Below are positions 20,273-38,045 of a stretch of DNA of 45,677 nt, piece by piece. The DNA is from Candidatus Omnitrophota bacterium (GTDB lineage Bacteria; Omnitrophota; Gorgyraeia; Gygaellales; Profunditerraquicolaceae): contig JAMWCI010000001.1 in assembly GCA_023818655.1 (NCBI GenBank), positions 1 through 45,677 on the forward strand. The letters run 5' to 3'. Made by a program: the position numbers and the translations under genes. How positions within the stretch are numbered: position 1 is the first letter of the stretch; each line of letters opens with the position of its first letter. The notes under the pieces were generated by a model. The model ran no database searches. It had not been told where the DNA came from and worked only from the letters and a program-made list of their open reading frames with translations.

Positions 20273-20277
20273 AGAAA

Positions 20278-22733: not shown

Positions 22734-22736
22734 TTT

Positions 22737-23708
22737 TCAATTTTTGCTTTGGTTTAAAAGGTGAACAACATCCCCGATATTCAAATAAATATGCTTGGTG
22801 ATTAAATTGCTGGGTGTTATGTCAAACGCCGGATAATATCCCTTGACTCCCTTTGGCGCAATAGAGATGCCGCAAAATTCCAATAATTCCCCCTCTGGAC
22901 GGATTTCAAGTTGAATATCCTCTCCTGTTTTAGCAAGAGAGACTGGAGAACAAAGCACATAAAAAGGAATCTTAAAATAATCTGCCATAATGGCAATCTG
23001 GTATGTTCCTATCTTATTGGCGATATCGCCGTTTTGGGCTAAGTTATCCGCGCCAACTATGACTTTGGAAATTTTTCCTTCCTTCATCACCTCTGCTACC
23101 ATATTATCGGCGATAACAGTGACATTACACCCTGCCTTTTTTAGTTCCCATGCAGTAAGACGGCTGCCCTGCAAATAAGGACGGGTCTCCGTAACAAAAA
23201 AACTTACGGATTTATTTTGCTGGCGGCATAATCTGGCAATTAAAGGCATAAGCCCGCTGACATTGCAATGGGTAAGAATTGTATCCTTATCGTCTATTAA
23301 TCCACTACATTCCTTTGCCTGCTCTATGCGTTTTGCCTTTAATCCTTCCAAAAAATTCAAGATGCCATTATCCAGCCGGACACCTTGCTTATGTAAACCA
23401 ATGGCAAGGTCAGTTAAAAACTTAAAAGATAGCGTTGGCCGAACGCTATTGAAGGCATCGGCAACATTAGACAGAATCTGAGCAATATTTTTTTTGTTCT
23501 GGTTTCGCCTGTATTCCAATAAAAAGGAATACATCACCAGCAATACCTGACCTATAGCGCGGGTCTTCATCTGTTTAATTGCCGATACCGCCTGTTTGTA
23601 ATTTCCTACTTTGATATATTTTAATTTATGCGGCAGCAATGTCTCATCTAAGATATAAATAAATTTACCTTTCAATTTCACCGGCCAAAACAAAGGAGAA
23701 TATTTCAT
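22737..23708 (-). CDS. eIF-2B alpha/beta/delta-family sugar-phosphate isomerase (MtnA-like; methylthioribose-1-P / 5-deoxyribose-1-P isomerase candidate)
   Basis: It has ILDETLLP near the N-terminus, ILTHCNVSGL (the catalytic Cys context of MtnA), and VIVGADNLAQNGDIANKIGTYQIA (the catalytic Asp context). Confidence 0.7.
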   Translation of the reverse strand: MKYSPLFWPVKLKGKFIYILDETLLPHKLKYIKVGNYKQAVSAIKQMKTRAIGQVLLVMYSFLLEYRRNQNKKNIAQILSNVADAFNSVRPTLSFKFLTDLAIGLHKQGVRLDNGILNFLEGLKAKRIEQAKECSGLIDDKDTILTHCNVSGLMPLIARLCRQQNKSVSFFVTETRPYLQGSRLTAWELKKAGCNVTVIADNMVAEVMKEGKISKVIVGADNLAQNGDIANKIGTYQIAIMADYFKIPFYVLCSPVSLAKTGEDIQLEIRPEGELLEFCGISIAPKGVKGYYPAFDITPSNLITKHIYLNIGDVVHLLNQSKN

Positions 23709-24457
23709 ATCCTTCCTTCTAACTTCTTTACCGTTGCCAGTCCGATATTAATCAGATTTGTCTCTGCCATATAATAAAGCGGATTCATAAAACCCATCTC
23801 TCCGGTTACGACATTGTCGCTGACTGCAAGGATTGAACCTGCTTTTACCTTATGCAGCTGCGCAATAGTCAGGAGCGCTGAAGAAACCATATCCACGGCA
23901 ATTGCGCCTTCTCTACGCCTGGCCTCCACAATCTGACGCGTCTCCCGCAATAACGCATCCGTAGTCCAGACAATCCCTCGATGGATATTTACGCCTAAGT
24001 CTTTGGCAACTTCATACAAGGTGTCGGAGATTGTTTTGTCAGCCACAGTTTGAAAATTCTCATCTACATAGTAAGGCGTTACCCCATCTCCTCGGATAAC
24101 CTTATCCACAATCACCAGATCGCCTATCTTGATATTATCATCCAAAGCCCCGCAGGTTCCGATGCGGATAATATTTTGTATGCCGGCATTGCACATCACC
24201 TCGGTGGTAATAGAGGTATCTGTGGAGAATCTACCGCCATTAATGGCGGTAATTCTTATCCCCTCATAGACGCCGGTATACATAGTGTATTCCATAAAAG
24301 AAAAATTGCGCACTGGATTCTCTATTTTTTTTACCAAGACTTCCAAACGGTCCTTTGGTCCGGGCACTATGGCATATTTGCCCACATCCTGAGGCCTCAA
24401 CTGCACCATATTGGTTAAATCTTTTCCGGTTAAATGAACATCCTTCTGCATCTGCAT
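23705..24457 (-). CDS. Nucleoside phosphorylase, NP-I (DeoD/Udp-like) family
   Basis: 250 aa with the pattern AIVPGPKDR .. YTGVYEGIRITAINGGRFSTDTSITTEVMCNAGIQNIIRIGTCGAL .. GDLVIVDK, typical of hexameric purine/uridine phosphorylases. Substrate cannot be read from the sequence. Confidence 0.7.
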   Translation of the reverse strand: MQMQKDVHLTGKDLTNMVQLRPQDVGKYAIVPGPKDRLEVLVKKIENPVRNFSFMEYTMYTGVYEGIRITAINGGRFSTDTSITTEVMCNAGIQNIIRIGTCGALDDNIKIGDLVIVDKVIRGDGVTPYYVDENFQTVADKTISDTLYEVAKDLGVNIHRGIVWTTDALLRETRQIVEARRREGAIAVDMVSSALLTIAQLHKVKAGSILAVSDNVVTGEMGFMNPLYYMAETNLINIGLATVKKLEGRI

Positions 24458-24474: not shown

Positions 24475-25128
24475 TTATCCGGTATAACCTATGGGAATAA
24501 TATATACGGGCTCTTCCTCTTTTCCTAGAGAAAGAATCTTTTTTACCTGACTGTTATCAAATGCTCCGATAGGGACAGACCCCAATCCCAGAGCTGTTGC
24601 TTCCAGATGGAGATTCTGGGCTACATGCCCTACTTCTATATCCACATATTGTCTCCCGCGCTCTCCATACTTAGATGTGACACGCCGATAGACCGCGCAA
24701 ACCACGACATTAACCGGCGCCTGAACTATTGCGCCCTGTCCAAAAGCAGAGTTAGCCAGAGGGATTCTCAAGTCAGAGGAACTTAATTGTTCTATGCGGT
24801 GTCCTTCCGGAAGATAATGATACAGGCCGTCTTTAGTCAATAAATAAATTTCTATCGGGTATAATGCGCCGGCAGAAGGCGCGCTACGTAGACTATGATT
24901 ACCTTTTTTAGCGGTTATGCCCTGAGCTGCCCAGAGAAGTTGACTGATTTGCTCAAAGGTTAGGTCTCTGGCTATAAACCTGCGTTGAGAACGTCTCTTT
25001 AGAATTGCCTCTTCCAGAGAAATCTTGCCTTTTGTTGCCGGATCAGGCAACTGAATTATCTCTCCAGCCATAACTCCTCCCGGATTCAATAAAAACACGC
25101 AAACCAATATCGCTGTGTATCCTCTCAT
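24475..25128 (-). CDS. SagB-type / nitroreductase-family flavoprotein with an N-terminal signal peptide or anchor
   Basis: It has RRSQRRF, LLWAAQGIT, LRSAPSAGALYPIEIYL, VGHVAQNLHLEATALGLG and a C-terminal PIGY. The N-terminal hydrophobic segment is TAILVCVFLLNPGGVMA. I call the ATG at 25128, because the track start at 25131 is a TTG. Confidence 0.7.
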   Translation of the reverse strand: MRGYTAILVCVFLLNPGGVMAGEIIQLPDPATKGKISLEEAILKRRSQRRFIARDLTFEQISQLLWAAQGITAKKGNHSLRSAPSAGALYPIEIYLLTKDGLYHYLPEGHRIEQLSSSDLRIPLANSAFGQGAIVQAPVNVVVCAVYRRVTSKYGERGRQYVDIEVGHVAQNLHLEATALGLGSVPIGAFDNSQVKKILSLGKEEEPVYIIPIGYTG

Positions 25129-25175
25129 CAACGTACTTCTGCCTATCCTGCGTTCATTCCAAACAGTATTTAGTT

Positions 25176-26105
25176 TTATGGCGACGATGACAAAGAAAAG
25201 GCTAACAGGCTTTCTAAATTCCTGCCTAAAATATTATTTTTATCTTCCTCTGAAATCGCTAATTCTCTGACTGCTCCGATGGAGTTGCTAATATCTTTTT
25301 TAGCTGGCCAGTCGCTACCCCAGAGTATATGCCTTGGCCCAAATAATTCAAGCGCCAAAAGAAAATTTGCCTTTGTCTTATCTCCGCCGGTATCCACATA
25401 GATATTCTTTAAATAATCCGAGGGGTTACCTTTTAAATCCTTTACGAAATTAATGCTGCGCAGCATAGAATAGGTGGCGTCAAATCTGTGCTGCAAAAAA
25501 GGTATTACCCCGGCAAAATGGGCAAAGATGAATTTAAGGTCATAATAATCGCGCAGGATATCGCTCATCAGGAGCTTGCCCGCGCTTAAGGTGATATCAA
25601 AAACATACCCAATCACCGGGGTTAAAAGCGGATCCTGCAACCGCTCTGCTCCTATAGGGTTTACAATCTGGGCATGTACAAAGATGGGAATCTTCTTCTG
25701 ACGGGCAATATTGTATACAGGAAGAAAACGCTGGTCATCCAGATATATTCCGTTGTAACTTGAGGCTAGGGAAATCGCCTTAAATCCCAACTCTTCAGTC
25801 GCTCTCTTTAACTCCTCGCACATATCTTTCGGATTATCTATAGGCAGCATTGCCGCACCGATGAATCGGTGAGGATAGCGCTTAATGATTTTGGCGACAT
25901 TATCGTTGTAGATACAAGCTGTCCGGGAAACGCTACCTATTTTCAGGTGCGCATCTGAAGTAGGATAGGAAAGCACAGCCTTGCTGATGCCTGCCTCATC
26001 CATAGCCTTAAGCTGGGCTTCGATATCGCCCCAGCCCTTGTGAAAGAAATGGGCGTTGGTTATAATCTCTTCGGGTAACCAGTGGGCATGGCTATCTATT
26101 ATCAT
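25176..26105 (-). CDS. Amidohydrolase-2 family metal-dependent hydrolase/decarboxylase (ACMSD-like)
   Basis: It begins MIIDSHAHWLPEE, the metal-binding HxH at the start. The C-terminal LWGSDWP is typical of the amidohydrolase-2 fold. Confidence 0.8.
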   Translation of the reverse strand: MIIDSHAHWLPEEIITNAHFFHKGWGDIEAQLKAMDEAGISKAVLSYPTSDAHLKIGSVSRTACIYNDNVAKIIKRYPHRFIGAAMLPIDNPKDMCEELKRATEELGFKAISLASSYNGIYLDDQRFLPVYNIARQKKIPIFVHAQIVNPIGAERLQDPLLTPVIGYVFDITLSAGKLLMSDILRDYYDLKFIFAHFAGVIPFLQHRFDATYSMLRSINFVKDLKGNPSDYLKNIYVDTGGDKTKANFLLALELFGPRHILWGSDWPAKKDISNSIGAVRELAISEEDKNNILGRNLESLLAFSLSSSP

Positions 26106-26500
26106 CTGCGCTCCGTACTCTTTAGAATGCGTTCAATCATCTCCATCTCATAGAGAAGTTTTATCTCCTTGAGGGCATCTTTGCCCAGCTCCTTGAGGAT
26201 GGCCTTTTCCACCGCCTTAAGTTTCAAATGAAGAAAATTATACTCTGGATTAATTTCATTATTATTCAAAAACTTCTGCTCCTTTGCCTCCTTTTCCTTG
26301 TTGCATATATAATTATGGAAATCACTAATAAACTTAACCAGTTTCCTGGAGCTATCCATACGGATAATCTCCCTAAGCAAGAATCTGTCGATTTCTAACT
26401 GGGTAAATTTGCGCTCAATTTTATCCAGCTCTTCTTTTGTGGTTTTGTAAAGCCAAACCAGATACCGCTTTTTCAGGTTCTTCAGGTCAAGTTTCTCCAT
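26102..26500 (-). CDS. Hypothetical helical/coiled-coil protein
   Basis: 132-aa K/E-rich ORF with no recognisable motif. It is ATGA-coupled to the amidohydrolase gene, which supports real coding. Confidence 0.45.
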   Translation of the reverse strand: MEKLDLKNLKKRYLVWLYKTTKEELDKIERKFTQLEIDRFLLREIIRMDSSRKLVKFISDFHNYICNKEKEAKEQKFLNNNEINPEYNFLHLKLKAVEKAILKELGKDALKEIKLLYEMEMIERILKSTERR

Positions 26501-26510
26501 TTTATCTCTG

Positions 26511-27119
26511 CTATTTCTTTATCAACTCCACATCGTCAAAATATAAGGTGCCTTTTGCCACAGGCAGCGGTTCGAACTGGTAGCTTTTAATGGGGAAATC
26601 CAGAATCCCGTTTTTGTCTGCTGATTCCGGCTGCCAGTCAGTGCGGGCAAAGAAATGGTCAAAAATACAGATAACCTGCTTCCACCCCTTAACGTCATCG
26701 CTGGTGATAAAACGCCACATCTCTCCGCCATTATCTTTCACGTCAAAAGCTATATCTTCCTTTGAGCCTGCGCCGTACATCCAGAATGAAATCCCCTTAA
26801 AATCGCTCCACTTGATATCATTAGCTTTAACTAACCAAGCGGCATTTTTTGCATCTAGTTCCTCTCCTCTTGCTATATACATATACCCTCCGGAAACAGC
26901 GTCAAAGGCCGCCCGCAAAGACTGCTTTCCTGAATGCACTTGTTCTGTTGCGGCGCTTACTTGCAAGGATGAACCATTACCAGCGCCAAAGTCTACTGTG
27001 CCGTCTGGCCCGCCGGAGATTATCCCCTCAAAGTTATCAATCACTAACCCAGCCTCTTCAGAAAACGCTACCCCTGCCACAAATAAAACCGCTATCACCA
27101 TAAAAACTATCCTTTTCAT
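26511..27119 (-). CDS. Exported beta-sandwich protein (CBM/CIA30-like carbohydrate-binding-type domain)
   Basis: It has a signal peptide (VFMVIAVLFVAGVAFS). The pattern VIDNFEG ... GTLYFDDVELIKK resembles CBM11/CIA30-type modules. This assignment is tentative. Confidence 0.45.
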   Translation of the reverse strand: MKRIVFMVIAVLFVAGVAFSEEAGLVIDNFEGIISGGPDGTVDFGAGNGSSLQVSAATEQVHSGKQSLRAAFDAVSGGYMYIARGEELDAKNAAWLVKANDIKWSDFKGISFWMYGAGSKEDIAFDVKDNGGEMWRFITSDDVKGWKQVICIFDHFFARTDWQPESADKNGILDFPIKSYQFEPLPVAKGTLYFDDVELIKK

Positions 27120-27143
27120 TTTCTCCTCCTCCTTGACTAATGA

Positions 27144-27920
27144 CTATTTATCAGGGTGCTGTTGTTGAAATGGTATAACCGGCTTTGTCCAAGGCGTCTG
27201 CTGGTTTATAATGGAAATCTCCAAGGGGCAAACATTTGCCGGCACAGTCAGGGCAAATTTTACCGCATTCTCTATCGCCTCGGTAGTCATTAAGCGCGAT
27301 GTATCTGTGGTAACTTCTTTGAGCTTGCCGGTCAGGTCCGTATCCGTAACCCCGGGAAGAAGCGAGGTAATCTTAATCCCGTAGTCGCGAATCTCCCAAA
27401 AAAGCCCTTTTAAAAATGCGCGCAAGCCTACCTTTAAAGAGCTATACACCAGAAAATTTCTGGGCAAGGGGTCGCAAAGGGTTGAGCCGGAAACAATACT
27501 GATAATCGCCCCGGATTTATTTTTTATCATATCGTTAATCACCAGCCGGATGAGCCGGACATAGCCCATATAGTTAGTATGCGCCAGTTTCTCAATATCA
27601 TCAATGGGTTGCTCTGGAAAAGGATATTGACTGGAGACCCCGGCGTTGTTAATCAGAATATCTATCCTGCCAAACCGCTCCTTGGTTTTATTAACCAGGT
27701 TTTGCAGGTCTTCAAGTTTTGCCACATCGCAAACCACTGGCAAGACTTCTACCTTATATTTTTTAGCTATCTCTTCAGCTGCTTCTTTAAGCGGGCCTTC
27801 AGCCCTGGCTGCAATAACCACATTTATCCCAAGGCTGGCCACAGTAGAAGCCAAGGCCTTGCCTATGCCCCGGCTTGCTCCGGTAACAATGGCGGTTTTT
27901 CCTTTAAGTTCGCTAATCAT
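27144..27920 (-). CDS. Short-chain dehydrogenase/reductase (candidate polyketide ketoreductase)
   Basis: It has TGASRGIGKA for cofactor binding, NNAG, and the catalytic YSSLK (Y-x-x-x-K). There is a strong SD (GAGGAGG). Confidence 0.85.
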   Translation of the reverse strand: MISELKGKTAIVTGASRGIGKALASTVASLGINVVIAARAEGPLKEAAEEIAKKYKVEVLPVVCDVAKLEDLQNLVNKTKERFGRIDILINNAGVSSQYPFPEQPIDDIEKLAHTNYMGYVRLIRLVINDMIKNKSGAIISIVSGSTLCDPLPRNFLVYSSLKVGLRAFLKGLFWEIRDYGIKITSLLPGVTDTDLTGKLKEVTTDTSRLMTTEAIENAVKFALTVPANVCPLEISIINQQTPWTKPVIPFQQQHPDK

Positions 27921-27942
27921 CTCTTCCTCCTCTATTCTCTCG

Positions 27943-29070
27943 CTACGTCCGATTAACCAACAGCAATCTCTTCTCCAATAACAATAAAATGGTCAGACAC
28001 CCTCCGCAAAAGACAAAATTACTAACCGGGCTTTTCTGCAAAAGCATCCCTCCTAAACCGGCTCCTATGCCTCCGGAGATAAAACGGATGCTGCTGTTTA
28101 AGCTGGCGGCTTCGTAAAGAAAATTTTTCGGCAGATCAGTAAGAATGGTAGAAAGCCCAACGTGATTCATTGTCCAGCCCCAGCCCCAGATAATCATCAG
28201 TAGCGCCAATAAAAAAATCGGCATCTTAATCACCAGAGAAAACGCGCTTAAAATCATCAGGATAATCCCCAGTTTGATTGTTTTAAGCCTGCCCAATGAA
28301 TCTGCCAGCCTCCCTCCTAGCACTTCTCCAAAAATTCCGCTTACGCTGGTTAAGGTAATCAACATACTGATTAAGAATTGCCCCAGCCCCAACTGAAAAG
28401 AAAAATATACCGCCAACCACTGCTGCAGGCCATGATAGATTAGACTGATAAAAAATATATAGGTAAATACAGACAAAAATCTCCTGTCTTGAAAAGCATT
28501 AAGGTAATTCGTCCTAAAAATTCCTTCCTCACTAGTAAGACAGGGAAGATAAAAATACATCGCCAAACATAGACAAATACCTGCTACTGCCGGAATAATA
28601 AAAATCACCCGCCAGGGCAATACCCCGCTTAAGAAAAGCCCGCAAAGGGAGGCGATAAAAGTAGCGCCAAAGAAGAGCCCTATGTGTTTGCCTCTTTTAT
28701 CAGCCTCTATCTGCTGACCAATAAGGATAATCCCCACGGGAATAACCGATGCGCCGAATATCCCCGTCAAAAACCTTGCCCAGAATAGCTGATAGATATT
28801 TGCGGATAATCCCGCTAAAAGATTAGCAAGAGAAAATAAACCCAGACAGGTCATTTCTATCTTCTTGGCGTCAAAGAGCCGGACCAGCGGTCCATAGATA
28901 AGCGCGGCAAGACCGTAAGGAATCATATACAGCCAGATAATTCTTCCGGCAAAAAATTGAGAAACGAGAAAATCCTTGGCAATAGAAGGCACCAACGCGG
29001 CAGAAGCTGCCACATTAAAAGAAAGAATCGCTGCCTCTAAACACAGGATAAGAAAAACGTTTTTTTTCAT
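27943..29070 (-). CDS. Major facilitator superfamily transporter
   Basis: About 12 predicted TM helices with typical MFS loop composition. I call the ATG at 29070 (MKKNVFLILCLE...). The track start at 29112 is a TTG lying inside the upstream gene. Confidence 0.75.
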   Translation of the reverse strand: MKKNVFLILCLEAAILSFNVAASAALVPSIAKDFLVSQFFAGRIIWLYMIPYGLAALIYGPLVRLFDAKKIEMTCLGLFSLANLLAGLSANIYQLFWARFLTGIFGASVIPVGIILIGQQIEADKRGKHIGLFFGATFIASLCGLFLSGVLPWRVIFIIPAVAGICLCLAMYFYLPCLTSEEGIFRTNYLNAFQDRRFLSVFTYIFFISLIYHGLQQWLAVYFSFQLGLGQFLISMLITLTSVSGIFGEVLGGRLADSLGRLKTIKLGIILMILSAFSLVIKMPIFLLALLMIIWGWGWTMNHVGLSTILTDLPKNFLYEAASLNSSIRFISGGIGAGLGGMLLQKSPVSNFVFCGGCLTILLLLEKRLLLVNRT

Positions 29071-29086
29071 AGTAAGGACTGTTTGC

Positions 29087-29530
29087 CTATTGCCTGGCGG
29101 CTTCCCTTTCAATAATCTGCTTAAAAATCTTCAGATTTGTCTGAGAACCTTCGTTAATGAAGCCCTCCACCTGCTGGTCATTGAATTTTGCTTTCTCATC
29201 CATCTCAAAATGCTGAATCCAGCTCATCTCTATGCCTTCTGGTTTGGGAGTATAAAGCCAGATGATCTTCATATACTTAAAAGGAAATTTTGGCTCTTGC
29301 CTTTCGGCATAAGCAAAGTATTTGTCTTTAAACAAAAGTCGCCAGGATACCCAGGATTTACCTTCTTCATCAGTCAGGCGGAAGGTGAGCTTATTGTCTT
29401 TTCTCTCCAAGACCTCCGCCTTTTGGTATTCCCCGCCAAAAAGTTCTGTCCAGCGAGAGATATCGTTTGAGATATCAAAAACCAAATCGTATGGTGCGTT
29501 GATGATAATGGAATTGCAGGTATGCCCCAT
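29087..29530 (-). CDS. SRPBCC/START-fold polyketide aromatase-cyclase, mono-domain TcmN-like
   Basis: 147 aa. The pattern HTCNSIIINAPYDLVFDISNDISRWTELF..EYQKAEVLER....LTFRLT .. PFKYMKIIWLY .. GIEMSWIQHFEMD matches, as I remember it, the TcmN/WhiE-type ARO/CYC pattern. There is a strong SD (AAGGAGGGAG). Confidence 0.7.
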   Translation of the reverse strand: MGHTCNSIIINAPYDLVFDISNDISRWTELFGGEYQKAEVLERKDNKLTFRLTDEEGKSWVSWRLLFKDKYFAYAERQEPKFPFKYMKIIWLYTPKPEGIEMSWIQHFEMDEKAKFNDQQVEGFINEGSQTNLKIFKQIIEREAARQ

Positions 29531-29567
29531 TAATCTCTCCCTCCTTAAAAGGAAATGCCTTCTTGTT

Positions 29568-30359
29568 TTAAATTACCGCTACAACCCTTGCCCAGGCAGC
29601 GCCGGTACATTTAATCCTTATCGGAAAACAGATTACCTTAAAGCCAAAATCCGGCAGTTTCTCCAGATTAGCTAAACGCTCAATGTGGATAAACTCCCTT
29701 TTTCTGCCGTAAAAATGCGCCGGATACAATGGTTTTCTCTGTTCTAAAAACTCTCTGAGCATAAATTTATATGGCCGGTCAATCCCCATAGTATCCACGC
29801 CAAAGATTTTTACCCCCCTATCCAGAAGATAATCTATCGCTGAAATATCTACTCCTGGATAATCGGAAAAATATCTTGGAGTGCCATAAAATTTATCCGC
29901 GCCGGTCTGTAAGAGAACTACGTCTTTTTCTTTAATGGTGTAATTTATCTTTTTAAGCCCGCTTTCAATATCCGCCGCGCTAATTACCTCTGCCGGCCTC
30001 TTATGCCTGAAATCCAACCTGACCCCGTCAGAGTAACACCACTCCAAAGGAATCTCATCAGCGCTCTTAGAGGGTCGGCCCTCAGACTTTGAACCGTAGT
30101 GGAAAGAGTAATCCAGGTGCGTGCCGATATGCACCGGAGAATGCACTACTTCCAGAGAGAGAAATTCTCCTTCCGGCAGGTCCTCTTTTTTTAAGATGCG
30201 CAAACCCAGCAGATACTTTATCCTGCCAAGGAGGGTCTTAACCATAATAACGCGGTTGAATTTCTCTACGCCTGCCTTATGCGAAATCCGCTCAATATCC
30301 ACCTTATGTATCTCAAAGGCACTCTCGTCAATGGGCAGGCTTAAATCAATTATCTTCAT
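29568..30359 (-). CDS. Cyclase-family protein (kynurenine-formamidase-like Zn hydrolase/cyclase fold)
   Basis: It has the H-x-G-T-H-x-D-x-x-x-H motif (HSPVHIGTHLDYSFHYG). The size is right at 263 aa. It is ATGA-coupled to the ACP gene. Confidence 0.7.
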   Translation of the reverse strand: MKIIDLSLPIDESAFEIHKVDIERISHKAGVEKFNRVIMVKTLLGRIKYLLGLRILKKEDLPEGEFLSLEVVHSPVHIGTHLDYSFHYGSKSEGRPSKSADEIPLEWCYSDGVRLDFRHKRPAEVISAADIESGLKKINYTIKEKDVVLLQTGADKFYGTPRYFSDYPGVDISAIDYLLDRGVKIFGVDTMGIDRPYKFMLREFLEQRKPLYPAHFYGRKREFIHIERLANLEKLPDFGFKVICFPIRIKCTGAAWARVVAVI

Positions 30360-30592
30360 TTTGCAATCTTAGACTGAATTACCTTATCAATATCATTAAT
30401 GGTAGAAAACTTGGTAACCTCCTTTGCGCCCAAGGATATGCCGAAGACCTTTCCCAAAGCAATCACTGCCTCTACCATCTCAGTAGAATCCACACCTATT
30501 GAATCCTGCAAGGAGACATCATCCTTCAACTCTTCCGGCTTGACCTTAAGCAGATTAATCAATATTTCTTTTATCTTCGCTTTCGTATCCAT
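30356..30592 (-). CDS. Acyl carrier protein
   Basis: 78-aa acidic protein with the phosphopantetheine attachment motif GVDSTEMVE (Ser36). It has an SD (AGGAGAGGG). Confidence 0.85.
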   Translation of the reverse strand: MDTKAKIKEILINLLKVKPEELKDDVSLQDSIGVDSTEMVEAVIALGKVFGISLGAKEVTKFSTINDIDKVIQSKIAK

Positions 30593-30607
30593 ATCCCTCT
30601 CCTGTTG

Positions 30608-32068
30608 TTAAATCTGAATCTCACCTTTGGTTGCTGCGGCTTCCCATTTTCCAATGCCTGACATAACATCCTGAAAACAAAGTTTTGCCAAAGGGTCAAA
30701 GTTGCTCTCCATAATCCTGTTTATGCGTCCGGGCTTGGAATAAAATTCGCGCATACACCAAGCGCCCAAACGGCCTAACTCTTCAATCGTTAAATGGTCT
30801 GTGGGTATGACTGGATGCAAAAAATCCCAGGTGCTAAAATCTACTTTCTTGGGGTCAATCCAGTTTTTCTTCAGGGCTATCCTCCACATGGGGGAATTCG
30901 GGGCAGGGGTTACATAACCAATCCATAACACATCCGGGTCAACCTCATCGGCAAACTCAAACCTCTGCTTGATAATTGCCTCGGTATCGTAATCAAACCC
31001 AATCATAATATCCGCCACAATCGCAATATCATTCCTGCGCAAAATCTCAATGGTTTTTTTAATCTGTTCGATGGTGGTGCCTTTGGCAATCCGTTTCAGC
31101 TCCTCCGGAGTTGTAACCTCAATACCAAACACGCCCATAAATAAACCCGTTTCTTTCATTAGCGGCAGGATATGTTCACAATTTACCCAGTCCACTGCCC
31201 GACCCAAAGAAACCCACTTAATGGGGATATTCTTTTCTTTCTTTAATTCGCAAAATCTTTTTACCCGCTGCGGGTCAACATTAAAATTGTCGTCTTGAAT
31301 AACCACTACCTTTACGCCATACTTTTTATGAAGTAGTTCCATCTCTTCAATTACCCTCTCCGGAGACTTTGCTCGCCATTTCAAGAAGTCCGAAGGAGAA
31401 CGCGGGTCAAACTGGTCCCATTCATAGCAGAATGTGCAGGCAGATGGACAACCCCGGGAAGTAATCATATCCACGAAGGGCTTCCAGTGGGTATGCCCCA
31501 CGTATTTATCCATCGGGAACAGGTCATACGCCGGAAGGGGCAGCTTATCCAAATCACTCATCAACGGCTTATGCGGACCCATAACAATCTCTCCGTCAAT
31601 GCGCGAGGTGACTCCGCCGATATTTCTTAAGTCTTTCTTTTTATCAATCGCCTCAATTAAATCCGCAAAAGATTCTTCTTCTCCCATCACTACAAAATCT
31701 ACTGCCGGATTTTCCTCCAAGGTCTGTGTCGGCATAGCAGAGTACCATAAACCTCCCAGGATTATTTTTACCTTGGGAAGCGCCTGTTTAATCCTTACGC
31801 CTGCCTCCTTAAAATGGCGCAAGACGCCGTAGCCGGCATAACCGTGTATCTGTTCACCCATGACCACAATATCAGGGTTTTTGCTCTTGACCTGTTCGAT
31901 TAATTGCTCCATGGGAATCTCTAAGGCCCTTCCGTCAATAACCCCTACGTCAGCATATCCTCGCTGGCGTATATACGCTGCCCAATGGGCATAAAGCTGG
32001 TTCGGAGACTTATGGATTCCATGCGTTGCCCAGGCGCCGACTTTCGGCATAACAAATAAGATTTTCAT
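30608..32068 (-). CDS. B12-binding-domain radical SAM enzyme (class B)
   Basis: The N-terminal Rossmann-like B12-binding domain pattern runs MKILFVMP ... DIVVMGEQIH ... IILGG. It is followed by ITSRGCPSACTFCY (CxxxCxxC; Cys212/216/219 in ORF-track numbering). I call the ATG at 32068, which lies 8 nt after a GGAGG. The track start at 32083 is an alternative. Confidence 0.85.
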   Translation of the reverse strand: MKILFVMPKVGAWATHGIHKSPNQLYAHWAAYIRQRGYADVGVIDGRALEIPMEQLIEQVKSKNPDIVVMGEQIHGYAGYGVLRHFKEAGVRIKQALPKVKIILGGLWYSAMPTQTLEENPAVDFVVMGEEESFADLIEAIDKKKDLRNIGGVTSRIDGEIVMGPHKPLMSDLDKLPLPAYDLFPMDKYVGHTHWKPFVDMITSRGCPSACTFCYEWDQFDPRSPSDFLKWRAKSPERVIEEMELLHKKYGVKVVVIQDDNFNVDPQRVKRFCELKKEKNIPIKWVSLGRAVDWVNCEHILPLMKETGLFMGVFGIEVTTPEELKRIAKGTTIEQIKKTIEILRRNDIAIVADIMIGFDYDTEAIIKQRFEFADEVDPDVLWIGYVTPAPNSPMWRIALKKNWIDPKKVDFSTWDFLHPVIPTDHLTIEELGRLGAWCMREFYSKPGRINRIMESNFDPLAKLCFQDVMSGIGKWEAAATKGEIQI

Positions 32069-32088
32069 TCTCAAGCCCTCCATTTCTT

Positions 32089-32108
32089 TAGTTGATTATA
32101 GTTGATAT
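32089..32108. repeat. Tandem 10-bp direct repeat in the CLF/radical-SAM intergenic spacer
   Basis: TAGTTGATTA is followed by TAGTTGATAT, with the first 8 of 10 positions identical. The period is one helical turn. It overlaps a -10-like TATAAT on the minus strand. Confidence 0.6.
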
Positions 32109-32122
32109 TAAAAACCTTGCAA
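32095..32122 (-). promoter_or_regulatory. Candidate internal promoter ahead of the radical SAM-ACP-cyclase genes
   Basis: On the minus strand: TTGCAA (32122-32117), 16 nt, TATAAT (32100-32095). A GGAGG then precedes the ATG at 32068. Confidence 0.3.
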
Positions 32123-32133
32123 GAATAACGTCA

Positions 32134-33363
32134 TTATGGTTTTTCTACGACCAAGACCGCATTAATCCCTCCCCTGCCGCGGGAGATGGCCAAGGCTTTC
32201 TTAATCTTGTGCTCTTGCGCTTGTTTTCTGACGTAATTTAATGAATTCTGCGCAGGTTCATCAAGATTTATGGTAGGTGGAATTAAATTATGCTCCATAG
32301 CCAAAAGGGTAATTATCAAATCTATGGCCCCTGAAGCGCCTAAGAGATTTCCGAACATAGACTTTGGACAGCTGACAGGTATCTCTTTAAGCCTATCTCC
32401 AAAAACAATCCTTAAAGATTCTATCTCTGAGTTATCCCAGATATCCACAGCCAGACCATCAAGGCTGATAAAATCTATCTCCTCGGCTTCTGTCTTGGCA
32501 TCAGCAAGCGCCGTCTTAATTGCCCGGGCTAACTCTTGGCCGTCTGCGGCCGGATTAATCCTGTCTGCGCCGTCACAAGTTGTGCCGTAACCGGAAACTA
32601 AACCCAAGATATTTCCTCCCCGCGCAAAAGCGCGTTCAACACTCTCCATCACAACAATCCCTGCGCCTTCTGCGATAACAAAACCATTGCGTCTCTTATC
32701 AAATGGCCGGTAGGCCTCCTGCGGATGGGCGTTATCTGTGGAGAGCCCTCCGTAAGTGTTGCAGCATAACAGCGCATAGGGAGTAACCGGCGCCTCCATA
32801 CCGCCGGCTAAAATCAGATTTAATTTATCTTTGGCTAAAATCTTGCGCGCATAACCAATAGCCATTGTTGAACTTGCCCGGTCAGCGACTACGGTTTTGG
32901 AAAATCCCTTTATCCCGTAATAAATAGAAACCTGCCCTTGGGGGGCAGCAGGAAACCAGGCAGAAGCCATATAAGGAGAAACTCCTTCCCTGCCCTCAAT
33001 ATACATATCGCGCAATTCTGTCTCGGCATACAGCCAGCCGCCAATGGCATTGCCTAAAAATATCCCTACAAGATTAGGATTTTCTTTTTTAATATCTATG
33101 CCAGCATCCTGCAAGGCAAACTCTGAGGCAATCAAGGCCATATGCGAGAAGGCGTCAATCTTTTTTAAGAGCCGCGGCGAGATAGTGGAGTATTTTTCCA
33201 ACTCGTCAATCTGACCGGCAATATGCGAAGGGTATTTTGAGGCATCAAAACGGGTAATTTTCTTGACAAAGGAACGACCGCTTTTGATGTTTGCCCAGAA
33301 TTGACGTTTGCCAATCCCTGATGGACTAACTACGCCAATACCGCTAATGGCAATCTTATCCAT
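32134..33363 (-). CDS. Ketosynthase beta / chain-length-factor-like subunit, catalytically inactive
   Basis: It has the thiolase-fold KS pattern throughout. Column-by-column alignment to the adjacent KS-alpha puts Arg162 (codon CGG at 32880-32878) at the catalytic Cys position. Asp302 and Asn339 fall at the two catalytic His positions. Its start overlaps the KS-alpha stop by 8 nt. Confidence 0.8.
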   Translation of the reverse strand: MDKIAISGIGVVSPSGIGKRQFWANIKSGRSFVKKITRFDASKYPSHIAGQIDELEKYSTISPRLLKKIDAFSHMALIASEFALQDAGIDIKKENPNLVGIFLGNAIGGWLYAETELRDMYIEGREGVSPYMASAWFPAAPQGQVSIYYGIKGFSKTVVADRASSTMAIGYARKILAKDKLNLILAGGMEAPVTPYALLCCNTYGGLSTDNAHPQEAYRPFDKRRNGFVIAEGAGIVVMESVERAFARGGNILGLVSGYGTTCDGADRINPAADGQELARAIKTALADAKTEAEEIDFISLDGLAVDIWDNSEIESLRIVFGDRLKEIPVSCPKSMFGNLLGASGAIDLIITLLAMEHNLIPPTINLDEPAQNSLNYVRKQAQEHKIKKALAISRGRGGINAVLVVEKP

Positions 33364-34618
33364 TAAACCTCCGTAAAATTAAAGAAGAGTGAATCCCGGA
33401 GAAGCCGCTTGAAGTCTTCATCAGACAATTTATCCGCTTCTGGCGGGCTACATTAGGTATATAATCCAAATCGCACTGAGGGTCTTTCTCCTCCTGATTT
33501 ATTGTAGGAGGAAGAAAATTCTTTTCAAACATCATCGCATTGACGGTTAACTCCACGGCATTAGCTGCTGCCAGAGGATGACCAATCATAGATTTTAAGG
33601 AACTAATCGGCACCTTATAGGCATAATCGCCAAAAACTGTTTTGTAGGCAGCGGTCTCAAAGATATCGTTCATCCGGGTAGAAGAGCCATGCGCGCCGAT
33701 GTAATCAATCTCCTGTGGTTTAATCCCGGCGTCTTTTAAAGCCAAAACAATACAATTAGCCATAGCCGTGCCATCCGCCGGTAAATCCGTCATATGAAAT
33801 GCGTTGCAGCTCGTACCAAAACCGACCACCTCGCAATATATATGCGCATTTCTTTTTAAGGCGTGGTTTAATTCTTCTAAAATCAAAATTCCAGCCCCCT
33901 CCCCCAAGACAAAACCGTCGCGCCTATTATCAAATGGCCGCGAGGCTTTCTCAGGTGTATCATTGCGAGTAGATAAGACGCTGATCACGTCGAATGCGCC
34001 AAAGGTAATTGGCGTAATCGGAGCTTCTGCCGCCCCGCAAATCATAATCTCCTGTTCTCCGTCTTGAATGGTTTCTAAGGCAAAACCCACAGAGTCGGTT
34101 CCGGCGGTGCAACCGGTAGATAAAGTATTGCAGATTCCTTTTAGACCATATTTAGACGAGATTTCAATAGAGGGGGTATTAAACATCGCCGCATCATAAA
34201 GGTCAGGCCTGACCTTGGCAGGGTCAATAGGTTCTTTTCCGTCATTGGTCACTAAGGCAAACTCCTCTTCCATATATTTTGTGCCGCAGATGGCATTGGC
34301 TAAACAAACCCCTATCCGCCTAGGGTCTTCTTTGCTAAAATCCAAGCCGCTATCTTTAATCGCCATTTCTCCGGCAACTAATCCGAACTGCACATAGCGG
34401 TCCATCCGCATTACTTCCTGGTGAGTGAGACCCCATTGAAAAGGGTCAAAATCGCGCACCTCTGCGGCAATCTTGGTCTGAAAGATAGAGACATCAAATC
34501 CCTCTACTCGTTTTACTGCCGATACTCCGCCAACCATTGCCTTCCAGCAATTTTCTTTGCCAATACCATTAGGGGAAATCACCCCAATACCCGTAATCAC
34601 CACCCTGCGTTTATTCAT
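33356..34618 (-). CDS. Type II polyketide ketosynthase alpha subunit
   Basis: The catalytic triad is intact: Cys170 in LSTGCTAGTDSVG (codon TGC at 34111-34109), His310 in GAHGSSTRMND, and His347 in KSMIGHPLAA. The STGCT.G.D.VG and HGS.T..ND contexts are of the KS-alpha type rather than the FabF type. Confidence 0.85.
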   Translation of the reverse strand: MNKRRVVITGIGVISPNGIGKENCWKAMVGGVSAVKRVEGFDVSIFQTKIAAEVRDFDPFQWGLTHQEVMRMDRYVQFGLVAGEMAIKDSGLDFSKEDPRRIGVCLANAICGTKYMEEEFALVTNDGKEPIDPAKVRPDLYDAAMFNTPSIEISSKYGLKGICNTLSTGCTAGTDSVGFALETIQDGEQEIMICGAAEAPITPITFGAFDVISVLSTRNDTPEKASRPFDNRRDGFVLGEGAGILILEELNHALKRNAHIYCEVVGFGTSCNAFHMTDLPADGTAMANCIVLALKDAGIKPQEIDYIGAHGSSTRMNDIFETAAYKTVFGDYAYKVPISSLKSMIGHPLAAANAVELTVNAMMFEKNFLPPTINQEEKDPQCDLDYIPNVARQKRINCLMKTSSGFSGIHSSLILRRFNG

Positions 34619-36216
34619 TCTTCTATCCGCGTTAGTTTAAAGACTACCTTTCCGCCATCTGGACACGTTACTGTATCAATAGAATTTTGATTAGGCATAA
34701 AGAAAAATTTTGCGCCGAAATTCAAGGCAAAGAGAGCGGGAAAGGCGCAGTGGAAAGCTGCTCCGCAAAACCCCGGGATGCACTTTAAACCCTCGGTCCC
34801 CCATTTATCCCCGACTTTGTAGCCGAAGTGGCAAGTTCCGTCAGACCTCACTACCTCAATAAGCATTTTCTTCGGCTTAGGCCCTTTGTAATTTGGGTCT
34901 TTAGGGCTAAACTGCGCTTTGCCTTTATTGTCCAGAACCTCCACCTTAAACTCTAATTTTCCTCCGTCAGGACAGGTAACTTTTAAGGTCTGCTGGTTTT
35001 CCATAAAGGGAAACTTCGCCCCGAAACTTAAGGCGTAGGCTGCCGGAAACACTGCATGCGCAAGACCCAGACAGAAATATTTGGGCGGATGAGTAAAATC
35101 TTCTAAGATCAGCTCATCTCCGACTTTATATCCATGATAACAATGCCCTCCGACATTAACTACGCTGAGTTTAAGGCGCGGAAAAGGAGAATCAATCACC
35201 TTATTCTCAACAATCTCCGCCAGTCCATTAATTTCCCGAAAAAACTCTTCCCTGCTGAAAAACTTCCTATTCTTTTCAACCTCATGCACCATCTCCACCA
35301 TTTTTTTATTGAGCGGCGCATCCAATCCGTATTTCTCAGCTAACCGCACAAACTCTCCGTTAAGATAATCTATCTCCGAAGGTCTGCCTCTTTTTATGCT
35401 TTGCAATACCGAACCGTAGAGCGGCTCTTTACTCAATGTAGTCATGATGCCGGAGTATATCCCTGCTGACTGCACAGCAGGCAAAGAAACCAGTTTAGTC
35501 AGACGCTCAAGGGGAAAATCCGGCAAAGAAACCAGTTTAATTCCTCCTTTGTTAACAATCTCCCAACCCTCTTTCCATATCTGCATAGCCACGCAGGATA
35601 CATTAATATCGCTAAAGGCCTTCTGGATGCTAACACCTAAGATGGCAGGGATACAGTTATTGGCATTTATAAAGAGCTTAAGGTATTTCATCCCCTGGAT
35701 ATCGTCGGCAAGCCTAACATTAAAAGCCACGCTTAACGTTGCGAATAACTGCTTGAGCGTATCGTCGTTCTTCCCAAATGCGCTTCCGATAATCCACGGC
35801 CCTTCAAAGTTATGCGCAATCCTGCCTGGTTCAAGGCGGGTGGCGCCGAACATTACAATACTGGAGACGATATTTTCCTTTGGCGCATATTTAGCCACCA
35901 GTTCTTCGCTGGCTACACCGTTCTGGATAGTCAGGATTATCGCATCTTTAATATATGCCTGATTACTCTTTAACGCCTCTTCTATATCTTGGGTTTTGGT
36001 AGCTAGAATAATAAGGTCTGGTTTATAAGAGAGCTTTTCCGAGATGGGTATCTTTATATTATGCTGGCCCTTTGCTCCGGAAATATGCAGGCCGTTTTCT
36101 TCCACCGCCTTTACGCTGTCAGCATGAGCAACTAAAGATACATCTTGACCTTTTAGCTTTAAATAACCGGCTACCAAACCTCCGATTGCTCCTGCGCCAA
36201 TTACCGTAATCTTCAT
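34615..36216 (-). CDS. Ketopantoate-reductase (ApbA/PanE)-like NAD(P) oxidoreductase fused to two tandem small Cys/His-rich domains (TIGR04076-like)
   Basis: Residues 1 to about 310 begin MKITVIGAGAIGG (Rossmann) and show the KPR pattern (LATKTQD .. QNG .. EIDYLNGEFVRLAEKYGLDAP). Residues about 347-427 and 451-531 are two copies of one roughly 80-aa module (C.HGYKVGD ... FC..A.H..FPA..AL.FGAKF.FM.NQ....VTCPDGGK..FK). Confidence 0.75.
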   Translation of the reverse strand: MKITVIGAGAIGGLVAGYLKLKGQDVSLVAHADSVKAVEENGLHISGAKGQHNIKIPISEKLSYKPDLIILATKTQDIEEALKSNQAYIKDAIILTIQNGVASEELVAKYAPKENIVSSIVMFGATRLEPGRIAHNFEGPWIIGSAFGKNDDTLKQLFATLSVAFNVRLADDIQGMKYLKLFINANNCIPAILGVSIQKAFSDINVSCVAMQIWKEGWEIVNKGGIKLVSLPDFPLERLTKLVSLPAVQSAGIYSGIMTTLSKEPLYGSVLQSIKRGRPSEIDYLNGEFVRLAEKYGLDAPLNKKMVEMVHEVEKNRKFFSREEFFREINGLAEIVENKVIDSPFPRLKLSVVNVGGHCYHGYKVGDELILEDFTHPPKYFCLGLAHAVFPAAYALSFGAKFPFMENQQTLKVTCPDGGKLEFKVEVLDNKGKAQFSPKDPNYKGPKPKKMLIEVVRSDGTCHFGYKVGDKWGTEGLKCIPGFCGAAFHCAFPALFALNFGAKFFFMPNQNSIDTVTCPDGGKVVFKLTRIEE

Positions 36217-36491
36217 CTGTGTATTTCCTGTTTTGTCTTGGGAAAACCGTATTTTTTGTAGTCAAAGCCGGTCTGCTCCAATAGACGCACCATCATGCTG
36301 TAAAAAGGCGAAGGCACATCCGCAAAAAACGCGCCTATTACATCCTCCTCTTCAATTTTCGGCGAGCCCCTTTTTAAAGCCAGTTCTTCTGCCTTCTTAA
36401 TCACTATCTCCTCTGTTATGCGACGGTGAAAGAGGGGGATTTTGGAAATAAAGATTTTGAATTTATCCTGCACCGTTCTTTCCCATTCCAT
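36213..36491 (-). CDS. Small PCP-reductase-like (BchB/ChlB C-terminal-like) domain protein
   Basis: 92 aa. The pattern WERTVQDKFKIFISKIPLFHRRITEEIVIKKAEELALKRG resembles the W..eA...l.kiP.FvR......e..A...G pattern of that domain. It is the first gene after the promoter and is ATGA-coupled to the next gene. This assignment is tentative. Confidence 0.5.
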   Translation of the reverse strand: MEWERTVQDKFKIFISKIPLFHRRITEEIVIKKAEELALKRGSPKIEEEDVIGAFFADVPSPFYSMMVRLLEQTGFDYKKYGFPKTKQEIHR

Positions 36492-36537
36492 GCTATAATT
36501 TCCTAATATAATAAAATTTTACTATTAAAATTTTTAT

Positions 36538-36566
36538 ATCTTACATAAAAAATACGTTCCTGTCAA
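36538..36566 (-). promoter_or_regulatory. Strong sigma-70-type promoter of the PKS operon
   Basis: On the minus strand: TTGACA (36566-36561), an exact 17 nt, TAAGAT (36543-36538). It lies in a very AT-rich 97-bp gap immediately after the padR stop. The predicted TSS falls inside an AAAATTTTA-CTAT-TAAAATTTT inverted/direct repeat (36512-36534). Confidence 0.55.
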
Positions 36567-36588
36567 GCGCTTTTCTGAAAAAGTTCGT

Positions 36589-37107
36589 TTAGATTACGTT
36601 GATAAAGCGGGTTAAAAAATTAATCTCTGAATCAACCATCCGCAGGTTATGTTCTAGTATATAAATAAGACTCCTTGGGCTCTTGGTCTTTTTTAACTCT
36701 TCTATATTCTCTCTTAAATCCCGGGATAATTTTCTTAAAACCATAGTCCTTGCGCGTAACCTGCGTCTGGCTATCTGTGGCTTAATATAATTAAGAAAAT
36801 AGAGGCTTAAATCCAGGCTAAACTGCGGACGTTTAAAGTCCAGAAAACTTTTACTTAAAAGCTCCTCAAATCTCTCCTGCCCTCTCGCGGTCAGATAATA
36901 TACAAAACGCTCTGGCCGCTTCCCCTTTTTTCTGATTCGTTTGGCAATAAGACCCCTGCGTTCAAGAATCCTTAGGGGATAGTAAATGGATTTTAAATCC
37001 ACTCCCGCAAAGATAGAGAGTATCTCTTTTATCGTTTTCTTGATTTCATAGCCGTGCTTCTGGCTTTCCTTTAACAAACCCAAGAATAATAATTCGTATT
37101 CAATCAT
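36589..37107 (-). CDS. PadR-family transcriptional regulator
   Basis: It has a winged-helix pattern ([23 protein letters not shown] .. [14 protein letters not shown]) and a helical C-terminal extension. It is ATGA-coupled to accA. Confidence 0.8.
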
Positions 37108-38045
37108 GCAAACACCCCAATAGCACGGAATTTTTTGTAGCGTGCCTTAAGCAGGGTCTCAGTCTCCAGTTTTTTTAATTCGCTGAGATTTTTCAGCAGG
37201 GAATCTTTTAAATTCTTAGCCATCATCTGCGGGTCGCGGTGTGCCCCGCCTAATGGCTCCGGTATTATCTCATCGATAATACCCATCCCCAACAGGTCCT
37301 GTGCGGTTAGCTTTAATACCTGGGCTGCCTCAGGAGCCCTTGAGCCATCCTTCCACAATATCGCTGCGCATCCTTCGGGTGAGATGACGGAATAATAGGC
37401 ATTTTCCAGTACGCAGACCCTGTCGGCAACACCTATCCCCAACGCACCTCCTGAACCGCCTTCGCCTATAACTGTAGCCACCATCGGCACTGCTATATTC
37501 ATCATCTCGCGCAGATTCTCGGCTATGGCCTGCGACTGACCACGCTCTTCCGCCCCTATTCCGGGATATGCGCCCGGCGTATCAATAAATAACAATACCG
37601 GCAGGCCTGACTGCTCAGCCAGACGCATAATCCTTAGGGCCTTACGGTAACCCTCGGGATGCGTGCAGCCAAAATTGCGTTTAAGGTTTTCCTTTGTGTC
37701 TCTTCCTTTCTGGTGTCCTATTACCGCTACCTTCTGACCTTCAAATTTTGCCAGGCCAGCTATTAATGCCTTGTCGTCGAAAAAAGCCCTGTCTCCGTGC
37801 AACTCCAAGAAATCAGTCATAAGCATATTGATGTAATCAAGGGTATAAGGACGCTGGGGATGGCGGGCAATCTGTACCTTCTGCCATGCCGTAAGGTTGG
37901 CATAGGTTTCTTTCTTTAGGGCTTCCAGTTTATCTTCCAGACGTTTAACCTCAGCAGAGATATTGATCTTCTTCTCGGAGAAATCCTTAAGCTCCTTGAT
38001 TTTCTTCTCCAGCTCTGCTATAGGTTTTTCAAATTCAAGGCTCAT
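37104..38045 (-). CDS. accA: Acetyl-CoA carboxylase carboxyltransferase alpha subunit
   Basis: 313 aa with [28 protein letters not shown] and [12 protein letters not shown]. Confidence 0.9.

Follow-up and report, generated by a model that had tools for sequence, protein, structure and literature searches.

The window analysed here is a stretch of 45,677 nucleotides (contig JAMWCI010000001.1 of assembly GCA_023818655.1) from a Candidatus Omnitrophota bacterium, which has a GC content of about 44% and carries nearly all of its genes on the minus strand. It encodes two adjacent β-ketoacyl synthase (KS) paralogues of the type II polyketide synthase (PKS) kind, namely KS-alpha (33356..34618, minus strand; 420 amino acids), in which C170, H310, H347 and K342 are intact, and KS-beta (32134..33363, minus strand; 409 amino acids), a chain-length-factor (CLF) subunit that is devoid of the Cys-His-His triad and contains the N-terminal and C-terminal Pfam ketoacyl-synt domains. 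KS-beta lies directly downstream of KS-alpha, with its ATG start overlapped by the KS-alpha stop over 8 nt, and is translationally coupled to it. Both Pfam ketoacyl-synthase domains are also found in KS-alpha, which passes only the broader beta-ketoacyl-ACP synthase II subfamily model PRK07314, and its best solved relatives are actinorhodin KS-alpha (1tqy_A; 1e-113) and AntD (6smo_B; 2e-112), with every FabF ranking lower. An earlier sequence-only reading of this DNA had paired a CLF-like subunit with an active KS-alpha, which is correct. KS-beta thus has the general features of a type II PKS KS-beta, as it is a KS-fold paralogue without Cys, is located downstream of an intact KS-alpha, and is clustered with a dedicated acyl carrier protein (ACP) and aromatic polyketide cyclases.

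The vestigial active site of KS-beta comprises Arg162 (codon CGG; 32878..32880, minus strand) at the column of the KS Cys and of Gln161 in the actinorhodin CLF, Asp302 (codon GAT; 32458..32460, minus strand) at the first catalytic His column and Asn339 (codon AAT; 32347..32349, minus strand) at the second, while R395-G396-R397 (32173..32181, minus strand; HMMER alignment) stand in place of F-G-F in the GFGFGG loop of FabF. The codons and four independent alignments concur with the sequence-only reading in placing Arg162, Asp302 and Asn339 at the Cys, His and His positions. BLASTP aligns KS-alpha with KS-beta (34% identity, E=1e-87) and pairs R162, D302 and N339 with C170, H310 and H347, reproducing the gap-free alignment around the site, and the HMMER alignments to the solved FabF structures 5sxo, 3o04 and 4ls5 give an identical register. 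In HMMER segment alignments, VADRASS of KS-beta is matched with VAEQAGG of the actinorhodin CLF, which puts R162 on Gln161, and with TSDVAG of AntE, which puts R162 opposite Asp, while in the C-terminal segment "srgrgg" of KS-beta is matched with "sfgfgg" of FabF, so that R397 occupies the position of the gating Phe. MAFFT alignments of KS-beta with its relatives agree with this register. A register shift placing Gln or Cys in the catalytic column, which had been named as the observation that would overturn the assignment, was looked for and is ruled out by the HMMER, BLASTP and MAFFT alignments together. KS-beta is thus set apart from FabF (KAS II) by the triad R/D/N instead of Cys-His-His and by a score of 374.8 with the NCBIfam fabF equivalog model (TIGR03150), below its cut-off of 493.75, and from the canonical actinobacterial CLF by Arg162 instead of Gln at the Cys position.

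The AlphaFold2 monomer model of KS-beta (predicted local distance difference test score, pLDDT, 90; predicted template modelling score 0.91) has a full FabF-like thiolase fold and superposes with template modelling (TM) scores of 0.90–0.92 on FabF and 0.88 on the actinorhodin CLF. The sole weak stretch of this model, residues 109–136 (32956-33039), has a pLDDT below 50 and coincides with the region of the dimer interface and polyketide tunnel helices in solved KS-CLF structures, and as judged from the model it probably orders only in the heterodimer. Besides the fold, the actinorhodin KS-CLF (PDB 1TQY) shares with the window pair the gene order, the coupling and an acidic residue preceding the column (E160 and D161, respectively), but it differs in carrying Gln161 where KS-beta has Arg162, and it is a weaker match to KS-beta (2e-69) than FabF is (1e-82). 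Photorhabdus AntD-AntE (PDB 6SMO/6SMP) is a non-actinobacterial aromatic KS-CLF in which AntE is likewise without Gln, but AntE is shorter (371 amino acids) and contains Asp instead of Arg at the column, as stated in the S2 Fig legend of its description (PMC6638757).

The view that Gln is conserved at this column in characterised CLFs, on which the sequence-only reading had relied, fails not only for AntE but also for gloCLF of Gloeocapsa sp. PCC 7428, KrCLF of Ktedonobacter racemifer and the KS-beta of Clostridium beijerinckii and C. puniceum, all of which carry Arg. The gloCLF sequence in the supporting information reads SKSFVCDRASGASG, with Glu and His at the two His columns (PMC11744666), and the printed KrCLF sequence reads GRTFLSDRASGALA, with Ala and Asn at these columns (bioRxiv 10.1101/2020.05.18.102780). 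Literature searches returned no explicit statement on, or mutation of, Arg in CLFs, the evidence being printed sequences. A search of 50%-identity representatives was swamped by multi-KS type I PKS proteins and yielded 24 usable nearest single-domain relatives; in this small sample Arg is present at the column in 14 of 24 and Gln in 0 of 24, while Cys is present in three (two FabF-like proteins with an intact C-H-H triad, and P0182 with Cys-Ala-His) and the remaining representatives have Lys, Ile, Ala, Thr or Met. The named representatives are P0135 from C. beijerinckii and C. puniceum, P0149 from Ktedonobacter, P0179 from Archangium and P0121 from Deltaproteobacteria metagenome-assembled genomes (MAGs). 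In the neighbourhood of the Clostridium protein (113 aligned sequences, consisting of its 110 nearest relatives, the query, and the KS-beta and KS-alpha of the window), 97 sequences carry Arg and 12 carry Ser, the named ones among the latter being from Nitrospirota. Proteins of Bacillus cytotoxicus, Leptolyngbya, Archangium and Deltaproteobacteria MAGs also have Arg at the column.

KS-beta contains the D/E-R dipeptide of the Arg-type clade (VADRASS, compared with CDRASG in glo, SDRASG in Kr and ADRASG in Clostridium), and it is 39–43% identical to the glo, Kr and clostrubin (Clr) proteins, 58% identical to a KS-beta from a Deltaproteobacteria MAG and 33% identical to its own KS-alpha. A neighbour-joining distance tree, which carries no support values, groups it with the KS-beta proteins of Deltaproteobacteria MAGs and Nitrospirota, adjoining the Clostridium/cyanobacterial group, with KS-alpha and FabF branching separately. 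As far as these sequences indicate, Gln is the actinobacterial state, while Arg is the commonest state in FabF-like non-actinobacterial KS-beta proteins, and the KS-beta of the window is an ordinary member of a known Arg-type non-actinobacterial KS-beta group. The interest of the residue had been made to depend on Arg being uncommon among characterised KS-beta families, and Arg turns out to be common in one (glo, Kr and Clostridium). The Nitrospirota KS-beta proteins P0306-P0319 (locus L083), which are 51–54% identical to the window protein, have Ser at the column (D-S-N-N), and Arg is thus not obligatory even in close relatives with the same cluster layout.

The three Arg-type relatives resemble the window system to different degrees. 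GloCLF (39% identical) has the same D-R motif (SFVCDRASG), an active KS partner and an ACP with Thr after the phosphopantetheinyl Ser, as in the window, and gloKS-CLF is a functional minimal aromatic PKS in vitro (PMC11744666). However, the second His is still present in gloCLF and the first is replaced by Glu (D-R-E-H, compared with D-R-D-N in the window), and the glo cluster includes a salicylate ligase and resides in an oxygenic cyanobacterial host; genes for B12-radical SAM (S-adenosylmethionine) and TIGR04076 proteins are unmentioned in the text of PMC11744666 as consulted. KrCLF (41% identical; TFLSDRASG) has lost both His as in the window, and KrKS-CLF has been purified from E. coli as a heterodimer (bioRxiv 10.1101/2020.05.18.102780), but its host is an aerobic member of the Chloroflexota and a product or activity is not reported. 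The Clostridium KS-beta (P0135; 43% identical) possesses the D-R motif and comes from a strictly anaerobic host, and its locus shares with the window KS-alpha, KS-beta, TIGR04076, the PF04199 cyclase, the SRPBCC cyclase, Amidohydro_2 and an ACP with the DST motif. It differs in the triad (D-R-E-H), in the fusion of TIGR04076 to the ACP rather than to ApbA, in the presence of two phosphopantetheinyl transferases (PPTases), a β-ketoacyl synthase III (KSIII) and hydrolases, and in the absence of a B12-radical SAM gene. The CLF of clostrubin biosynthesis is named ClrB (PMC7693217), and we infer from the organism and the locus architecture, rather than from an accession match, that P0135 is ClrB.

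Scanning one genome per GTDB species yielded 80 loci, with KS-beta orthologues 77–83% identical to that of the window; this profile-based scan returned Omnitrophota orthologues only and therefore informs on synteny but not on taxonomic breadth. Most of the 80 loci are titled Omnitrophota, while some are labelled by their depositors as Planctomycetales or otherwise. The 120 nearest KS-beta proteins are 79–84% identical, the named ones being from Candidatus Omnitrophota/Omnitrophica MAGs, and a catalogue of type II PKS clusters already includes Candidatus Omnitrophica KS-CLF pairs (PMC10132072). KS-alpha and KS-beta are found together in 80 of 80 loci. Synteny of the cluster extends over at least 80 Omnitrophota species, and the block is conserved in order wherever a locus is long enough to show it. 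D161, R162, D302 and N339 are invariant in 200 of 200 distinct Omnitrophota orthologues, and the positions of R395 and R397 are both Arg in 80 of 80 species. All six Arg codons are in use for R162 among the 80 species, which points to selection on the amino acid itself, and this codon diversity together with the invariance among orthologues indicates that the residues are not sequencing noise. Comparing positions 25176-38045 of the window with the 80 loci gives median identities of 85% for the B12-radical SAM enzyme, 82% for the short-chain dehydrogenase/reductase (SDR), 80% for KS-alpha and 79.5% for KS-beta, while the flanking housekeeping genes are less conserved (AccA 75%, YkuD 63%, ChlI-like 57%). 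The upstream neighbours (ChlI-like, DUF212, YkuD, AccA and PadR) are syntenic in about 25–30 loci. The conservation pattern of the PKS genes and the syntenic neighbours suggest vertical inheritance under strong constraint.

The genes of the block are arranged on the minus strand in the order 92-amino-acid protein, ApbA-TIGR04076x2, KS-alpha, KS-beta, B12-radical SAM enzyme, ACP and PF04199 cyclase, followed by the SRPBCC cyclase, a major facilitator superfamily (MFS) transporter, the SDR, a CBM11-like protein, a 132-amino-acid protein and Amidohydro_2. The syntenic block starts with the conserved 92-amino-acid protein (36213..36491), which has a weak DUF2621/PCP_red match, is found in 64 of the 80 loci and is 47% identical to an 82-amino-acid open reading frame (ORF) of the Nitrospirota locus L083; neither it nor the 132-amino-acid ORF has an informative family match. 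Next to it, an ApbA/PanE-type reductase is fused to two TIGR04076 domains (34615..36216; Pfam and NCBIfam). The B12-binding radical SAM enzyme (30608..32083) contains the Pfam B12-binding and Radical_SAM domains and is BchE/HpnJ-like, though its NCBIfam BchE score of 218 bits lies under the cut-off. The ACP (30356..30592; 78 amino acids) was identified by a motif scan (GVDSTEMVE) and gives a PF00550 E-value of 1.3e-8, above the cut-off. Two cyclases complete the core: an OxyN/DpsY-type "Cyclase" of family PF04199 (29568..30359; Pfam), whose position matches that in the Clostridium, Nitrospirota and Desulfobacterota-like loci, and a monodomain TcmN/WhiE-type aromatase/cyclase of the SRPBCC kind (29087..29530; Pfam Polyketide_cyc), which matches WhiE (3tvr/3tl1) and TcmN (2rer) structures in the PDB at about 1e-25.

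KS-CLF-ACP-TcmN-OxyN is regarded as the "ancestral" non-actinomycete architecture by Hertweck and colleagues, following Hillenmeyer (PMC7693217). This layout is present in the window, but with the radical SAM gene inserted and the two cyclases in reverse order. The pair might instead be of a specialised fatty-acid or ladderane-like kind, comparable to the KS/CLF-like pair of anammox bacteria, a reading to which the closer resemblance of KS-beta to FabF than to the actinorhodin CLF in sequence and fold, the B12-radical SAM gene between KS-beta and ACP, and the ladderane-type pipeline calls in Omnitrophota MAGs (PMC9902471) would lend some weight, yet it is very improbable, as the conserved core contains the TcmN/WhiE aromatase/cyclase and the OxyN-type cyclase, KS-alpha is closest to the actinorhodin KS-alpha and AntD, and no FabZ-type dehydratase is present. 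The anammox pair amxFabF2/amxFabFmut (bioRxiv 10.64898/2026.05.19.726425) likewise forms a KS/CLF-like heterodimer with a FabF-like inactive partner of mutated triad and is clustered with radical SAM genes. However, its subunits 9s5h_B and 9s5h_C are more distant matches, its mutant gene lies upstream of the active one, Val or Thr occupies the Cys column of its inactive partner, and it serves a lipid pathway without aromatic cyclases, whereas the window has Arg at the column, KS-beta downstream of KS-alpha and aromatic cyclases.

KS-beta is probably the CLF of an "ancestral-type" non-actinobacterial aromatic type II PKS, in which it would act as a dead structural partner with a charged network filling its pocket. 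Without Cys and both His it is unable to condense; it would heterodimerise with the adjacent KS-alpha and leave all of the chemistry to that subunit, its own part being to form the far wall of the tunnel for the polyketide, which it would thereby shape, and to assist in ACP docking. Such a heterodimer is most likely, and the homologues KrKS-CLF and gloKS-CLF were both purified as heterodimers. In KS structures the Cys, the two His and the gating Phe all point into one small cavity. KS-beta has Arg, Asp, Asn and Arg at the corresponding positions, with Asp161 ahead of the first, which suggests a buried cluster of salt bridges and hydrogen bonds. Arg162 together with D161, D302, N339, R395 and R397 thus most likely forms a buried network, which would fill and close the vestigial active-site pocket and have a structural role.

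Several points weigh against this assignment. The salt-bridge network and the closed pocket are deduced from the known geometry of KS active sites and not measured, and Lys334, the catalytic-site Lys of KS enzymes, is kept in KS-beta. That six charged or polar residues of the pocket never vary is more than a filler strictly requires and would also fit a ligand-binding site. In addition, two characterised Arg-type systems have dedicated priming machinery, namely a salicylate ligase (glo) and a KSIII (Clostridium locus), and these priming genes would leave room for a general association of Arg with non-acetate starters.

It is unlikely, though conceivable, that the Arg-lined pocket is a working site which binds the malonyl carboxylate or another anion and serves as a chain-initiation decarboxylase or regulatory site, as has been proposed for the Gln of the actinorhodin CLF. 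The fixation of D161, R162, D302, N339, R395 and R397 across the 80–200 orthologues would be in keeping with such a site, as would the retention of the Lys334 equivalent in nearly all KS-beta relatives and of the second His in many of them, and the Arg-type gloKS-CLF makes its acetate starter from malonyl-CoA. On the other hand, KS-beta has lost the two His by which KS enzymes polarise the malonyl thioester, and an Arg at the position of the gating Phe would tend to plug the entrance. A 2025 review locates priming decarboxylation at the active-site Cys of the KS, and the anammox heterodimer, whose partner has a fully mutated triad with Val or Thr at the column, still decarboxylates malonyl-ACP (bioRxiv 10.64898/2026.05.19.726425).

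With KS-beta as a structural partner, chains would most likely be initiated by decarboxylation of malonyl-ACP on the heterodimer, as demonstrated for the Arg-type Gloeocapsa enzyme. The minimal gloPKS, consisting of KS-CLF, engineered holo-ACP, the malonyl-CoA:ACP transacylase MCAT and malonyl-CoA, produces C24 and C26 compounds, whose masses are shifted by 24 and 26 units, respectively, with 13C3-malonyl-CoA (PMC11744666). Every carbon of these products, starter included, thus comes from malonate. GloKS-CLF also extended salicyl-ACP (PMC11744666). The sequence-only reading had offered two interpretations of Arg, a different priming chemistry or a purely structural partner; the former is contradicted by the labelling of the gloKS-CLF products at every carbon, so that Arg does not imply unusual priming, while the latter remains the best reading.

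A related but improbable alternative, which that reading had put forward, is that Arg marks a PKS without acetate self-priming, fed with a non-acetate starter by another route. Salicylate, delivered by a dedicated ligase, is the supposed starter of the natural glo pathway, a KSIII-type gene occurs in the Clostridium locus, and the window itself encodes an AMP-binding ligase at 18758-20272; however, the conserved Omnitrophota core contains no KSIII, acyltransferase or ligase, just 3 of the 80 loci have the AMP-binding gene close to the cluster, that of the window adjoins salvage genes (PNP, MtnA-like isomerase, class II aldolase and aldehyde dehydrogenase) rather than the PKS core, and gloKS-CLF primes itself from malonyl-CoA in vitro. 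To our knowledge, actinobacterial systems with non-acetate starters retain Gln, and the residue thus does not track the type of starter.

No PPTase or malonyl transferase gene is found within the window. In the ACP, Thr immediately follows the phosphopantetheinyl Ser (GVDSTEMVE), and the same DST sequence occurs in the TIGR04076-ACP fusion of Clostridium. The gloACP with the same Thr required T35L, together with Q31G, before it could be activated by Sfp (PMC11744666). Downstream of the cyclases lies the MFS transporter gene (27943..29112, minus strand; Pfam), which is missing from a subset of the orthologous loci; its listed ORF starts with TTG and overlaps the SRPBCC gene by 26 nt, and an internal ATG (MKKNVF...) is probably the true start. 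The SDR oxidoreductase (27144..27920, minus strand), found in 56 loci with a median identity of 82%, is a possible ketoreductase, but it is generic and FabG-like, with no specific likeness to the actinorhodin ketoreductase. The Amidohydro_2 protein (25176..26105, minus strand), which is also encoded in the Clostridium and L084 clusters, is a candidate aromatic-acid decarboxylase, a function that we presume from what is known of the family. A SagB-family nitroreductase-type dehydrogenase (24475-25131, minus strand) is encoded between Amidohydro_2 and the phosphorylase and scores 136.8 bits with TIGR03605 (cut-off 78.4); none of the 80 orthologous loci encodes an equivalent, and it is thus an insertion specific to this genome.

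The Cys-rich TIGR04076 domains (C..C..CPDGG) always accompany Arg- or Ser-type KS pairs in anaerobes, in four settings: the ApbA fusion of the window (34615-36216), two free ORFs in the Nitrospirota locus L083 (8183-8741), a two-domain ORF in the Desulfobacterota-like MAG locus L084 (8029-8619) and the ACP fusion in the Clostridium locus L081 (11260-11787). Literature searches returned nothing concerning the function of TIGR04076. The B12-radical SAM gene stands between KS-beta and ACP only in the Omnitrophota arrangement, while in L084 it lies upstream, beside a gene of the aldehyde:ferredoxin oxidoreductase (AFOR) type. The 21-kb stretch of L083 contains no B12-radical SAM gene and instead encodes a U32-family protein and an FMN reductase, which, like the B12-radical SAM enzyme, may be alternative solutions to anaerobic tailoring. 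Related clusters thus encode AFOR-type proteins, a B12-radical SAM enzyme or a U32-family protein, all of them characteristic of chemistry that does not depend on oxygen.

Directly after the PKS block, a salvage-like row of genes (18758-24457, minus strand) encodes the AMP-binding (acyl-CoA) ligase, an aldehyde dehydrogenase, a class II aldolase (with SCP2), an MtnA-like isomerase scoring above the TIGR00524 cut-off and a PNP_UDP_1 phosphorylase. In L084 and in many Omnitrophota loci, the cluster is likewise followed by the trio of phosphorylase, isomerase and aldolase. Presumably, this set resembles a dihydroxyacetone phosphate shunt, which salvages 5'-deoxyadenosine or 5'-methylthioadenosine from radical SAM reactions.

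As for the family, the textbook equation of CLF with Gln is corrected, as it holds for actinomycetes only, and one more orthologue group is added to the Arg-type FabF-like CLFs, which already serve as type II PKS parts that are soluble and can be expressed in E. coli. Known members of this group include the purified Kr and glo pairs, of which glo has also been reconstituted, and one that has been tied to the product clostrubin. The Arg column also bears on the long-debated idea of the CLF as a "chain initiation factor". The novelty is low for the Arg residue and moderate for the cluster, and the surrounding cluster is of more interest than the residue, as it couples an aromatic PKS to anaerobic-type tailoring enzymes and its PKS genes are better conserved than the adjacent housekeeping genes across at least 80 uncultured species. 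Seymour et al. report that chorismate lyase is missing in the quinone biosynthesis of Omnitrophota, and any link of the cluster to this process is speculation.

The salvage set, the anaerobic-type enzymes and the strong conservation together suggest a vertically inherited anaerobic pathway. It may tentatively be proposed, at low confidence, that the cluster encodes an anaerobic aromatic polyketide pathway belonging to the core genome and inherited vertically, with a physiologically important product, and that the KS-beta pocket could be a functional site. If so, many Omnitrophota would have the pathway in common, Nitrospirota and Desulfobacterota-like MAGs would possess sister clusters, and the clostrubin locus would contain a relative. 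Its aromatic product would be built without O2 by means of the B12-radical SAM enzyme, the TIGR04076 domains and the ApbA reductase, supplemented in the relatives by a U32 protein or an aldehyde oxidoreductase of the tungsten type, with a dedicated set of genes for 5'-deoxyadenosine salvage adjoining. Instead of an occasional antibiotic, the product would then be, for example, a compound similar to quinones or a polyphenol with redox activity or a protective effect against oxygen.

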